A DNA stretch of 51,309 bases, from the NCBI GenBank assembly GCA_964637115.1, contig CAZWVL010000009.1, positions 1 through 51,309 on the forward strand, in the 5' to 3' direction. Source of the DNA: an uncultured Methanosarcinales archaeon. Lineage in GTDB: Archaea > Nanobdellota > Nanobdellia > Woesearchaeales > ARS49. Positions 27,540-29,278 of this stretch are shown piece after piece; the stretch's first letter is position 1; each line of letters opens with the position of its first letter. The notes below the pieces were generated by a model, which worked only from the letters and a program-made list of their open reading frames with translations, was not told where the DNA came from and did not search any database. A program made the translations under genes and the position numbers.

Positions 27540-28214
27540 ATGTTCGATTTGTTCGGAACATCAAAAAAGCTTGCCGAGATGGACAAATCCGTCTCGCAGT
27601 CGTTTGCGAAGGTGAAGCAGGATACAGATACCCTCAACCAATGGGTTACGTATTTGCATTCCCAAAACCAGCAGCTCGTCGAGCAGAATGCTGCTTTGAA
27701 GCGCCTGACGGAAGAGCAAAAGTTTGCTTTGAACGAACTGAAAGTAACTGTGCAGCACTTGCCAAAGACGCCGCACGAGATCAAGCAGATCGTCGAGCAG
27801 TACTACAGCTTCGACCCTATTTTGCAGCGCATCAAGCACATTGAGCAGAAGATTGAGTTGTTGGAAATGAAGCGCGAAAGGAGTTCTTTCCGCCCTTTGG
27901 ATCACTCGACACCTAGCGTGAGCGCTCCGCCGGCAAGAGAAGCAGCCAGTACAGCTTTGAAGGATAAGCTGATGCGCAAGCTCGCTCGCAATAGCAAGGA
28001 CTACATCAAAAATTTAGTTCTGGGCCTCGTGCACAAGTACGGAAAAATGGGCGCTTTGCAATTGCGCGAGATGGTGGTCGACGAACAAGGCCTCTGTTCA
28101 AAATCCAGCTTTTACCGCATCCTGGAAGAGATGGAACAAGAGCATAGTTTGCAGATCATTTCTGACGGAAAACACACGGTCTATGTTGCCAGTGCAATGC
28201 ACGCAACTTCCTAA
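27540..28214 (+). CDS. Coiled-coil protein with C-terminal winged-helix-like domain
   Basis: N-terminal heptads (LNQWVTYLHSQNQQLVEQN); C-terminal YIKNLVLGLVHKYG...LREMVV...SKSSFYRILEEME. Confidence 0.75.
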   Translation: MFDLFGTSKKLAEMDKSVSQSFAKVKQDTDTLNQWVTYLHSQNQQLVEQNAALKRLTEEQKFALNELKVTVQHLPKTPHEIKQIVEQYYSFDPILQRIKHIEQKIELLEMKRERSSFRPLDHSTPSVSAPPAREAASTALKDKLMRKLARNSKDYIKNLVLGLVHKYGKMGALQLREMVVDEQGLCSKSSFYRILEEMEQEHSLQIISDGKHTVYVASAMHATS

Positions 28215-28278
28215 TTTTTTTCTCTACCAAAAACCATTTAAACCACTTCCCACTCCAAAAAACCATCGACCAAATGGG

Positions 28279-28821
28279 GTGGTAGAAATTCACGACAAGC
28301 AAGAGGTATTGCTGTCGAGTGATGCACCAGTATTACGCCAGCAGATCTCGACCGTGCTTGAGTGCATGCGCGAGGAGCTTGATGACCACAGATTGGCCAT
28401 CAACGAGAACACAGACGAATTAGTTGCTGCAAGTGAGTTCACGAATGAACTCGGCCGGCGTCTGGATAAGCTCACCGAGCGTGTAGACGAGCTAACTTTA
28501 CTCATTAAGGGGCAGAAAGAGCAGAAGAGCTTTGAAGTTAAGCCTTTGAGCAATAGGGAGAAGGAAGTCTTCCATGCGCTTTACGTCTTGACTGAGAGCC
28601 AGCCTTACGCGTCCTACGAGCAGGTTGCCAGAAAGACGTGTTTGACTCGGGGCATTGTGATGGACACTTTGACGAGCATAGCGTTGAAAGGCGTTCCCAT
28701 TCTCAAGAAGCTTGACGGCACAACTGTTTTCATGAAGCTTGACTCGGATTTCCGTCAGCTGCAGGCAAAACAGAACATCATTGGCCTGAATTCTCTTCTG
28801 ACGGCCTGGCTTCCTCGCTAG
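28279..28821 (+). CDS. Coiled-coil protein with C-terminal winged-helix-like domain
   Basis: EELDDHRLAINENTDEL...LDKLTERVDEL coiled coil; LSNREKEVF...SYEQVARK...LTSIALKGVPI HTH. Start codon uncertain. Confidence 0.75.
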   Translation: MVEIHDKQEVLLSSDAPVLRQQISTVLECMREELDDHRLAINENTDELVAASEFTNELGRRLDKLTERVDELTLLIKGQKEQKSFEVKPLSNREKEVFHALYVLTESQPYASYEQVARKTCLTRGIVMDTLTSIALKGVPILKKLDGTTVFMKLDSDFRQLQAKQNIIGLNSLLTAWLPR

Positions 28822-29278
28822 AACTTCTCAATTTTTCTTTTTTTATCTCATTCTGCAAATGCTCGATAATCCTGAAGCTGCTGTCCATGTGAGCTTTTAG
28901 GGTTGCTTCTGCTTTCCTGAATGCTCCTTCCAGATTCGTGCCATTTAGCTCATACCCAATCACGACCTTGCCTCCGGAGACAAAACTTGTTTTCTTGAGA
29001 ATCTGGAGGTCTAAAAATCTGTGAAGATAATCGTACATCGTCTGGCGTTTAATTCCTGCATAAAGCGCCATTTCTTCGACGGGCAGGACTGCCGCTTCCG
29101 GCTTTTTTTCTCTGTTTGCTTCTTTCTTGCGCTCGTATAGCTGCAAAATCAGTTTGTGCAGCTGTGCATTGCCGTCTTTTTTTCTTGGCAGGAGTCCAAA
29201 TCTGGCCAGCAAAACTTTTGCCAGCTCTTCAACTTCGTGGTTTACAGGTTCCGCGTTGTCGAGCAAAAATTCCATCAT
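28778..29278 (-). CDS. Winged-helix DNA-binding-like protein
   Basis: VEEMALYAGIKRQTMYDYLHRFLDLQILKK...GYEL; AAGGTG SD before ATG 29278; overlaps the convergent gene by 44 nt. Confidence 0.75.
   Translation of the reverse strand: MMEFLLDNAEPVNHEVEELAKVLLARFGLLPRKKDGNAQLHKLILQLYERKKEANREKKPEAAVLPVEEMALYAGIKRQTMYDYLHRFLDLQILKKTSFVSGGKVVIGYELNGTNLEGAFRKAEATLKAHMDSSFRIIEHLQNEIKKEKLRSSSEEARPSEENSGQ

Follow-up and report, generated by a model that had tools for sequence, protein, structure and literature searches.

A genome-unique, helically phased repeat array beside a long-helix winged-helix protein gene: a candidate centromere-like module of Woesearchaeales

Introduction

What could hold three small winged-helix protein genes and one dense array of short repeats together on an archaeal chromosome? 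A locus in an uncultured member of the Woesearchaeales (DPANN) with a 1.27-Mb genome raises this question, which touches on chromosome segregation, anchoring and timing, processes that to our knowledge are essentially unknown in archaea with tiny genomes. The archaeal segregation systems that we know of (SegAB, AspA-ParBA and HpaAB) all have a ParA-type ATPase. No description of the protein family at the centre of this locus, of DPANN origins or of DPANN centromeres was found in the literature. Here, we describe the three genes (A, B and C), the repeat array upstream of A and their conservation among relatives, using a stretch of 51,309 nucleotides (the window) and sampled genomes of the same phylum, and we weigh a centromere-like role against transcriptional control, replication initiation and fork arrest.

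Results

The three open reading frames claimed in a preliminary description of this DNA are all present: gene A (27540-28214, plus strand, 224 aa, ATG at 27540), gene B (28279-28821, plus strand, 180 aa, GTG start at 28279) and gene C (28778-29278, minus strand, 166 aa). Homologues of A are called at 211-227 aa. The B frame is open from 28183, and its start was set at the conserved GTG at 28279 in agreement with 178-180-aa gene calls and the frames of relatives, so that A and B do not overlap and lie 64 nt apart. The reported convergence of C on B with a 3' overlap was confirmed; the overlap measures 44 nt here and is identical in relatives. A TATA-like box of A, read from the sequence, lies at 27510..27520 on the plus strand, about 20-30 nt before the ATG, a distance implying a probably leaderless or short-leader mRNA. 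Gene B has a possible TATA box of its own (about 28235-28247), and that of C lies at 29312-29323. The locus adjoins a block of ribosomal-protein and rpoL genes, and Rfam and tRNA scans of the window gave no matches.

AlphaFold2 models of A and B, for which the preliminary description had claimed long N-terminal coiled coils, show a long N-terminal helix followed by a winged helix-turn-helix (wHTH). The model of A (mean pLDDT 84.7) has a helix at residues 4-72 (pLDDT 92-98), helices at 78-88 and 92-115, a disordered linker at 116-138 and a C-terminal wHTH at 139-222, and that of B (mean pLDDT 80.2) has a helix at 16-78 and a wHTH at 92-165. The long isolated helices, together with weak matches to coiled-coil families, suggest that both proteins form coiled coils. 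In A, the recognition helix carries the motif LCSKSSFYRIL, which hardly varies within the family, and the N-terminal peptide MFDLFG..KK is conserved, with the pattern M-x-(D/F)-(L/F)-F-G followed by K/R kept through the whole family; the peptide is not distinguishably amphipathic, its hydrophobic moment being 0.41 where the background gives 0.36 and 35% of background values reach or exceed 0.41. The helix at 16-78 of B carries a conserved REELDDHxxAINENTxE. Gene C, the most conserved of the trio (58 invariant columns), has an RFGLLPRKKDG motif, a predicted wHTH and a C-terminal helix. Its wHTH is assigned from a sequence pattern and a weak HTH_Crp_2 match, and its language-model neighbours carry HTH_20/HTH_5 (scores 0.90-0.94); C looks like a more ordinary ArsR-type factor with no predicted long coiled coil.

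None of the three proteins reaches any Pfam or NCBIfam cut-off, HTH families (ArsR/SmtB, MarR) included, and no ATPase or nuclease family in these collections matches any of them, as the preliminary description had stated. Profile searches against PDB sequences returned coiled-coil noise or sub-threshold HTH matches only. By Foldseek, the C-terminal domains of A and B match MarR/ArsR-type winged helices (E 3e-4 to 1e-2), and the proposed likeness to the winged helices of ScpB/kite proteins, SegB, RepA, DnaD or Cdc6 was not borne out, the matches being of the generic MarR/ArsR kind. ScpB, SegB, RepA and DnaD are absent among the matches listed for A and B, one ORC-Cdc6 complex chain stands at rank 22 for B among equal matches, and AspA, found for both proteins, scores no better than dozens of MarR/ArsR regulators. 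Homology among A, B and C themselves was considered and rejected, since BLASTP and hhalign show nothing beyond a short HTH stretch and profiles did not confirm a B-C BLASTP match (E 0.006).

The A family comprises 558 clusters at 50% identity. Members occur in 103 of the 201 genomes sampled from the phylum, strong matches being confined to this order, where A is an order-wide, single-copy gene in stable synteny. Gene C is likewise single-copy, in 52 of the 201 genomes, all within this order. At every examined locus with a full-length A, in more than 15 families, A and B are adjacent; B was not found beside the short A-like genes of family f29. Where strong A and C co-occur, C directly adjoins A in families f1, f42, f50 and f51 and lies about 2.6 kb away in family f66, and its orientation varies. 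With both the A-B and the A-C linkage conserved, the trio is a conserved module of the chromosome and not the unrelated regulators that an absence of linkage would have pointed to.

An iteron array of about 20 units of GTCC(C/T)RRGAC in an 11-bp phase (27250..27502) lies upstream of A and is split into blocks by a central palindrome, TTTATCGTCGATAAA (27428..27442). Most units are direct repeats that read on the strand of A, inverted TGGGAC-N-GTCC pairs occur closer to the promoter, and the last unit ends 8 nt upstream of the TATA box of A, a layout shared by relatives. The array pattern matches 24 times in the window compared to 8.3 +/- 3.5 times in shuffles, and 15 of the 24 matches fall in 27261-27494. 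In the genome, the array stands out with 19 core matches in 300 bp, the next-best site having 8. The idea of a multi-copy element was dropped, as the second-densest site (C1:187 kb) is an unrelated coding 51-bp tandem repeat within a large protein.

The same arrangement recurs in relatives. A triple-repeat search gave 43 matches in 41 relatives, 41 of the matches directly upstream of A, and reversed-pattern controls gave 0; in other families, 12 more loci have their densest TCCCA window right beside A. Pooled unit spacing in relatives is 11 bp (66 cases) or 10 bp (20 cases), and multiples of 11 also occur. The array core co-varies with the recognition helix of A: helices reading CSKSSFYR(I/L)L pair with TCCCA arrays, those reading CSKA(T/S)FYRY pair with TCTCA arrays (families f29 and f22), and a K-to-R recognition-helix variant in one f1 genome (G019) is likewise found with TCTCA arrays. 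Phylogeny confounds this co-variation, which comprises few independent changes among lineages. Of the earlier suggestion that these proteins bridge DNA or spread on it as oligomers, the idea of oligomeric coating is strongly supported by a unique, 11-bp-phased array that co-varies with the helix of A, and the specific resemblance to segregation-adaptor folds is the part that fell away.

The predominance of one repeat orientation also fits a polar replication-fork barrier or pause site, at which forks would stop on meeting A on its oriented repeats, as they do at RTP-bound Ter sites beside rtp in Bacillus and at the Sal-box arrays of rDNA. Gene A would suit such a role as a wHTH protein with a putative dimerising helix encoded beside its candidate sites, and so would the adjoining block of ribosomal-protein and rpoL genes. 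The locus, however, does not lie opposite the origin: in f1 genomes it is 220-330 kb from cdc6, or 17-25% of the chromosome, and we consider fork arrest highly improbable.

The array occurs once per genome and always beside A, also where A has been inverted in place. In three such genomes (G117, G040 and G037) it remains at the 3' side of A. In G117 the displaced array is still upstream of the promoter of the neighbouring gene; in G040 two genes converge on it with their 3' ends and no called promoter is near, indicating that the array is more than the operator of A.

Further sequence elements connect the locus to promoters elsewhere in the genome. The palindrome core, TTATCGNCGATAA, has six copies in the genome, five of them intergenic, with sites in the array itself, in the region upstream of radA, ahead of XPD and, at 9-10 nt, in front of gyrB and gyrA; MCM and two ftsZ paralogues are preceded by sites with one mismatch. 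Genus g8 has just two exact palindrome sites, one before gyrB and one before XPD. Among relatives, an element related to the palindrome occupies the centre of the array, and a TCGNCGA-type box also precedes gyrB in families where C is not found beside A-B. The exact palindrome is rare in other genera (found in G021 and G015 only, of five searched), and the regulon is therefore firmly shown only for genera g1 and g8. A second box, GTCCAGTGTCCAGTG (CACTGGACACTGGAC on the strand of C; 29336..29350), lies about 12-16 nt upstream of the TATA box of C. Only three copies of it occur in the genome, before gene C, the radA operon (C4:59590) and a Sua5/YrdC gene (C10:7041), all at an equal distance from the TATA box, and the box is kept in the C promoters of relatives and, in family f29, in those of radA. 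Two twin-hairpin elements (26915..27190) lie left of the array, each ending in CGGAAATC-N3-GATTTCCG-AGG (at 26926-26946 and 27167-27185); about eight such elements are found in the genome, four of them flanking the locus. Two other hairpins, CGGAAACC-AAA-GGTTTCCG and CGGAATTC-AAA-GAATTCCG, lie upstream of C (29358..29412).

These boxes bring forward a purely transcriptional explanation, in which A, B and C would be transcription factors particular to this lineage that control a regulon for replication, repair and division. The array would then be only a high-cooperativity operator giving switch-like autoregulation of A-B and of the divergent neighbour, one of the proteins would bind the palindrome (gyrA, gyrB, MCM, XPD, ftsZ) and another the CACTGGAC box (C, radA). 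All three folds are of transcription-factor type, the array abuts the TATA box of A and, in G117, still precedes a promoter after displacement. At gyrB and gyrA the palindrome sits between TATA box and ATG, the typical position of an archaeal repressor site, and the CACTGGAC box sits just upstream of the TATA box in three promoters, an activator position. As the array lies in a promoter region in most genomes, plain autoregulation explains much of the pattern. An array of about 20 sites found once per genome, however, would leave its regulator with no regulon beyond its own locus, and the G040 array is off any called promoter. Nor do the proteins sort onto the boxes: B was considered as the palindrome binder and set aside because its recognition helices show no pattern with changes in the central box, and co-occurrence of A or C with the palindrome box likewise shows no pattern that identifies the binder. 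We regard transcriptional control as the whole function of the module as possible but doubtful.

Replication offers another reading: the locus could be a second origin of non-canonical type, or a site that controls initiation, with A as an origin-specific iteron binder and the central site serving a general initiator. The layout here resembles that of iteron plasmids and Vibrio chromosome 2, where a rep gene adjoins iterons and a DnaA box. The centre of the f29 and f22 arrays reads CCCCCTTATTTCCTATGGAAA, a near-match to an ORB-like box beside the cdc6 gene of the present genome; as a degenerate 18-nt pattern it occurs once per genome in three of the four f29 genomes searched and has no match in G079 or in the f22 genome G045. 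Three long intergenic tracts lie within 4 kb, an AT-rich tract with 14-bp periodicity is found at about 30380-30480, and the palindrome links the locus to the MCM and gyrase regulon. A canonical origin, however, is already present on contig C4, where the single cdc6 is directly preceded by an AT-rich tract between inverted ORB-like boxes. In this genome the locus has no ORB match and no AT-rich unwinding tract adjoining the array, A has a single wHTH and none of the AAA+ or tandem winged-helix features of an initiator, and the iterons of Rep plasmids span two turns, or roughly 20 bp, where the units here span 11 bp. Cumulative GC, AT, RY and MK skews and gene-orientation bias, tried on a 585-kb contig of a relative (G018), show no turn even at cdc6, making the skew method uninformative in this lineage; the cumulative skews show no turn at the array of that contig either. 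Taken with the evidence on both sides, an origin here appears improbable.

Discussion

We favour the reading, at a probability of about 0.45, that A coats the array and so builds a complex resembling a centromere, coupled to the programme of replication and division and assisted by B and C. What we observe are the genes and their folds, their conserved linkage, the uniqueness, phasing and A-linkage of the array, its co-variation with the recognition helix, its retention beside an inverted A and the palindromic box that it shares with other promoters; which protein binds which site, how the proteins oligomerise, what the peptide of A docks to and whether the module segregates, anchors or organises the chromosome are inferred. 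The C-terminal winged helix of A would recognise the 5-bp core TCCCA and bind once per helical turn over about 250 bp, placing all copies on one face of the DNA. The bound copies would constitute one large nucleoprotein complex per chromosome, like the plasmid partition centromeres parC/ParR and tubC/TubR, in which the long N-terminal helix may pair or bundle neighbouring copies of A. The N-terminal MFDLFG-KK peptide might dock a partner, candidates being the membrane, PCNA or an NTPase encoded elsewhere. Abutting the A promoter, the complex would probably also set A-B expression, and the palindromic box in mid-array, common to gyrase, MCM, XPD and ftsZ promoters, could tie its assembly or expression to the replication and division programme. 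Gene B, with its A-like architecture, and C, ArsR-like and with a promoter box in common with radA, would be accessory DNA-binding partners and are candidate binders of the other boxes. Neither the trio nor the adjoining genes match an NTPase family, and the three FtsZ and three ParA/MinD-like genes of this genome are on other contigs. At its distance from cdc6 in f1 genomes, the locus is not origin-proximal, unlike bacterial parS sites, which are.

Plasmid centromeres offer the closest layout. The tubC site is described as 5-bp iterons in blocks upstream of tubR that cover its promoter, TubR being a winged-helix protein (PMC6009700), and R1 parC as ten direct repeats flanking a promoter (Dam & Gerdes 1994). 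The A locus likewise has phased short direct repeats in blocks that immediately precede a gene encoding a small DNA-binding protein and overlap with the promoter of that gene. TubR and ParR coat their arrays into large curved complexes; for A, such coating is a proposal. Unlike these plasmid systems, the A module is chromosomal, single-copy and conserved across an archaeal order, its A-B operon has no TubZ, ParM or ParA motor gene, TubR and ParR do not have the long N-terminal helix of A, and the locus adds a second and a third wHTH gene. Searches of Pfam, NCBIfam, PDB profiles and Foldseek gave no sequence homology of A or B to TubR (wHTH) or ParR (RHH) and no membership in their specific folds.

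In predicted architecture, A also invites comparison with single-protein bacterial DNA tethers. RocS of S. pneumoniae, pSK1 Par and RicO of S. aureus, and RacA and Noc of B. subtilis are described as joining a DNA-binding domain, a coiled coil and an anchor peptide, as using repeated sites on chromosomes or plasmids and multivalent assembly on DNA, and as having no dedicated NTPase (PMC11500499; PMC4331003; bioRxiv 10.64898/2026.03.06.710092). RocS, pSK1 Par and RacA, with a wHTH, a coiled coil and a terminal anchor, are reported to segregate DNA without an NTPase of their own (PMC11500499), and the weak terminal membrane peptide of Noc is reported to work only with multivalent assembly on DNA (PMC4331003). 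Compared to RocS, pSK1 Par and RacA, the order in A is mirrored, with the peptide N-terminal and the wHTH C-terminal. The DNA-binding domains of RocS, pSK1 Par, RacA and Noc are MerR-type or ParB-like, whereas the wHTH of A is MarR/ArsR-like; tether proteins use scattered sites, whereas A has one dense array, and its peptide is not demonstrably amphipathic.

Among archaeal proteins, AspA (pNOB8), SegB (SegAB) and HpaB (Haloferax) are comparable as site-specific binders that nucleate beside their own operons and spread, and AspA is a wHTH protein, as are A and B. These three are described as working with an adjacent ParA-type ATPase (PMC8682754, PMC13722703), and no phased 11-bp array is reported for them in the literature covered. 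Canonical archaeal oriC regions, in which inverted ORB elements flank an AT-rich unwinding element beside orc1/cdc6 or whiP, share with this locus short conserved boxes in long intergenic DNA beside genes for wHTH proteins, and the f29 array contains an ORB-like box; unlike them, the present locus has no ORB pair, unwinding tract or AAA+ initiator. Rep initiators of iteron plasmids (RepA/pi/RctB) differ in having tandem winged helices, iterons of about 17-22 bp at two-turn spacing and an unwinding element, in place of the single wHTH and 11-bp units of the A locus.

The A, B and C proteins are three sizeable families for which there is no Pfam model, and together with 250 bp of DNA they make a concrete and inexpensive experimental system. 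The TCCCA and TCTCA arrays with their matching helices would represent a natural specificity swap in a lineage that cannot be cultured. At its core the module is order-wide and single-copy, pairing a dedicated long-helix wHTH protein with a genome-unique, helically phased array of candidate binding sites. More tentatively, and with less expectation that it holds in full, the array and A, with B and C in some families, may represent the first centromere, or anchoring system, of a DPANN chromosome, a phased-iteron segrosome that would work with no dedicated motor or with FtsZ or ParA in trans, and whose link to the cell cycle would run through an embedded box for the replication/division regulator, in some families an Orc1/Cdc6 box.

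Description

The three uncharacterised winged-helix genes, A, B and C, lie on contig C9 (51 kb, covered entirely by the window) of a 1.27-Mb, 98%-complete genome whose lineage, according to the source names of homologues, is Woesearchaeota, DPANN. The locus is chromosomal and not a mobile element, since core archaeal genes surround it, encoding ribosomal proteins L1 and L10, UppS, RpoL, RsmE, a PAC2 proteasome chaperone and PEP synthase (UppS and RpoL, absent from the Pfam calls, were named from ORF translations and conserved synteny). A DUF7121 coiled-coil protein (E 6e-8; 20870-21760, minus strand) adjoins the ribosomal L10/L1 genes, and a weak Zot-like P-loop protein (39467-40321, plus strand) lies amid genes with no Pfam match at a 0.001 cut-off.

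Gene A (27540-28214, plus strand) encodes 224 aa. The frame of B is open from 28183, with a conserved GTG start at 28279 (180 aa) on which relatives and database gene calls all agree, and C (28778-29278, minus strand; 166 aa) overlaps the 3' end of B by 44 nt. Pfam and NCBIfam yielded no model at threshold for A, B or C, only sub-threshold coiled-coil families, and homology among the three was undetectable in the comparisons run. AlphaFold2 models, built from alignments of natural homologues, show A as a 69-residue helix (4-72, pLDDT above 90) followed by two shorter helices, then a disordered linker and, at the C-terminus, a winged helix; the model of B combines a winged helix with a helix of 63 residues. 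The preliminary description of two long-helix winged-helix proteins and a third winged-helix protein is thus borne out by models for A and B, and for C by sequence: the residue pattern of C, together with language-model neighbours carrying HTH_20/HTH_5 (scores 0.90-0.94), points to a winged helix of ArsR-like type, preceded by an additional N-terminal motif and followed by a C-terminal helix. Foldseek matched A and B only to generic MarR/ArsR-type winged helices (E 3e-4 to 1e-2), with AspA and one ORC-Cdc6 complex chain level with many others; of the proteins proposed for comparison, ScpB, SegB, RepA and DnaD had no match there, and Cdc6 appeared only as that one chain among equals. An N-terminal MFDLFG-KK peptide is kept through the whole A superfamily. 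When tested, it was not measurably amphipathic, and its partner could be the membrane, an NTPase, or PCNA via a putative PIP-like motif of the kind at RFC1 and ligase I N-termini.

An array of about 20 phased GTCC(C/T)RRGAC units in an 11-bp register occupies 27250-27502, within the 666-bp intergenic region before A. Its core matches (19 in 300 bp) exceed those of the genome's next best site (8), and shuffles contain the pattern only a third as often as the window, where most matches fall within the array stretch. The second-densest GTCCC site (C1:187120-187360) consists of 51-bp tandem repeats in an ORF of very large size, rich in Cys, Pro and Gly and probably encoding a surface protein; it was rejected as a further array, being an unrelated coding tandem repeat. 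Across relatives, TCCCA cores are spaced by 11 bp (n=66) or 10 bp (n=20), the remainder mostly by multiples of 11. Three cores at array spacing gave 43 matches in 41 genomes, 41 of them directly upstream of an A homologue (0 matches for the reversed pattern); 12 further loci from other families share the arrangement, and a 585-kb contig of relative G018 likewise carries only one such array. In G117, G040 and G037, A is inverted in place, so that A and B diverge and the array, its position kept, lies on the 3' side of A; in the complete genome G040 it sits between convergent 3' ends. The array appears to be more than the operator of A; purely transcriptional control by A, B and C is a less likely but sizeable alternative.

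A is single-copy. Searches found it in 30 of 41 close relatives and, at phylum scale, in 103 of 201 genomes sampled, with strong full-length matches among the 201 confined to this order; its family comprises 558 clusters at 50% identity. B adjoins A at every examined locus where A is full-length (families f1, f2, f10, f12, f14, f16, f17, f21, f32, f42, f44, f47, f50, f51, f59 and f66). C is single-copy in 52 of the 201 genomes, every one within this order, and neighbours a strong A wherever both occur (f1, f42, f50, f51; 2.6 kb apart in f66). The orientation of C is changed in f50 and f51, and survival of adjacency through rearrangement argues for functional coupling; co-occurrence of A and C is not universal. 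This conserved linkage (A with B, C near A) is evidence against the trio being unrelated factors, an outcome that the preliminary description had named as counting against it. In family f29 the short A-like genes stand without B or C alongside, which makes A the core of the module and B and C additions to it. Two genomes are flagged as unpublished: G023 supplies locus L011, one of three cdc6 distances and 3 of the 43 triple-core matches, and G010 one row of the A search in relatives; no conclusion depends on either.

The recognition helix of A reads CSKSSFYR(I/L)L beside TCCCA arrays. In f29 and f22 the A-like proteins are divergent and shorter and have CSKA(T/S)FYRY, and their equally phased arrays have the core TCTCA and almost no TCCCA; in G019, within f1, a K-to-R change in the helix likewise accompanies TCTCA arrays. 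This co-variation, with few independent changes, is the best available evidence that A may be the array-binding protein. The f29 loci (L111-L119) encode A-like proteins of 169-204 aa, oriented divergently from an operon in which a 93-aa ORF accompanies radA, with TCTCA arrays and a central ORB-like (Orc1/Cdc6-box-like) box.

The array is split, with 5-bp cores one per helical turn, abuts the promoter of the small winged-helix gene next to it and occurs once per replicon. This is the architecture of the plasmid centromere parC/ParR, reportedly described by Dam and Gerdes in 1994. It is equally that of tubC/TubR, a plasmid centromere with a split 5-bp-core array beside a winged-helix gene promoter (PMC6009700). 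The design of A (terminal conserved peptide, long helix, winged helix) mirrors the motor-less tethers RocS, pSK1 Par and RacA (PMC11500499) and RicO (bioRxiv 10.64898/2026.03.06.710092), and also Noc, whose weak terminal peptide is effective only after multivalent assembly on DNA (PMC4331003). Because a centromere-type array is combined with a tether-type protein, we favour, at a probability of roughly 0.45, a reading by analogy in which A would assemble on the array as a centromere-like or anchoring nucleoprotein complex that would also autoregulate. A replication-fork barrier at the array is highly improbable.

The locus is probably not the main replication origin. The single cdc6 gene, on C4, has the canonical layout, an AT-rich tract upstream flanked by inverted GTTCCATACGAAAC...GGGG boxes; at 2370-2615 of locus L038 (C4:111500-117500) this tract lies directly upstream of cdc6 with inverted ORB-like boxes, CCCCTATTTCCTATGC on one side and GTTCCATACGAAACCAAGGGG twice on the other, and is likely the canonical oriC. 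Skew analysis gave no signal even at cdc6. The A locus has no ORB pair and no unwinding tract in this genome, and 220-330 kb separate it from cdc6 in G018, G023 and G040; that it is a second origin is unlikely. A secondary origin or initiation-control site is possible because of the ORB-like box embedded in f29 arrays: the array centre in f29 and f22 holds CCCCCTTATTTCCTATGGAAA in place of the palindrome found here, nearly equal to the box beside this genome's cdc6. Of four f29 genomes searched with a degenerate 18-nt pattern of this centre, three have a single match each; there is none in G079 (f29) or G045 (f22), and the f29 module adjoins the radA operon, 28-30 kb from cdc6.

Other elements surround the locus. 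About eight copies of a twin-hairpin element (a first hairpin that varies, joined by a linker resembling AGCACCAT to CGGAAATC-N3-GATTTCCG-AGG) occur in the genome, four flanking the A-B-C genes (26926-26946, 27167-27185, 29365-29383 and 29392-29410) and others at C2:64266, C8:5304, C8:45739 and C26:2583; an RNA structure, a terminator and a protein site are all conceivable. Of the 21 GTGCCTAA octamers in the genome, six, partly as inverted pairs, cluster in intergenic tracts either side (26799, 26965, 27002 (-), 30607, 30633 and 30690 (-)), and an AT-rich intergenic tract 1 kb beyond C (30380-30480) carries ATTCT every 14 bp. The C promoter has CACTGGACACTGGAC just upstream of its TATA box, an arrangement found elsewhere only at the radA operon and a Sua5 gene.

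The palindrome at the array centre, TTTATCGTCGATAAA (27428-27442), has a 13-bp core with six copies in the genome, five of them intergenic (about 3e-5 by a simple binomial, with ~9% of the genome intergenic): one lies 9 nt ahead of the gyrB start codon and one 10 nt ahead of that of gyrA, both between TATA box and ATG; the others lie upstream of an XPD helicase, in the region upstream of radA, and in the array. Sites with one mismatch are found 86 nt ahead of MCM and 316 nt ahead of one ftsZ paralogue, and a further one ahead of a small ORF that precedes a different ftsZ paralogue. TTATCG(N)CGATAA marks a small regulon comprising gyrB, gyrA, XPD, the radA region, MCM and, of the three ftsZ paralogues, two (sites at C5:78300, C18:2099, C2:72082, C4:59610, C4:126443, C2:77190 and C5:89608). 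G021, of a different genus, has two exact copies only, before gyrB and XPD, and three further families have degenerate TCGNCGA forms ahead of gyrB. Sharing of this palindrome between the array and these genes places the A-B operon in a replication, repair and division regulon.
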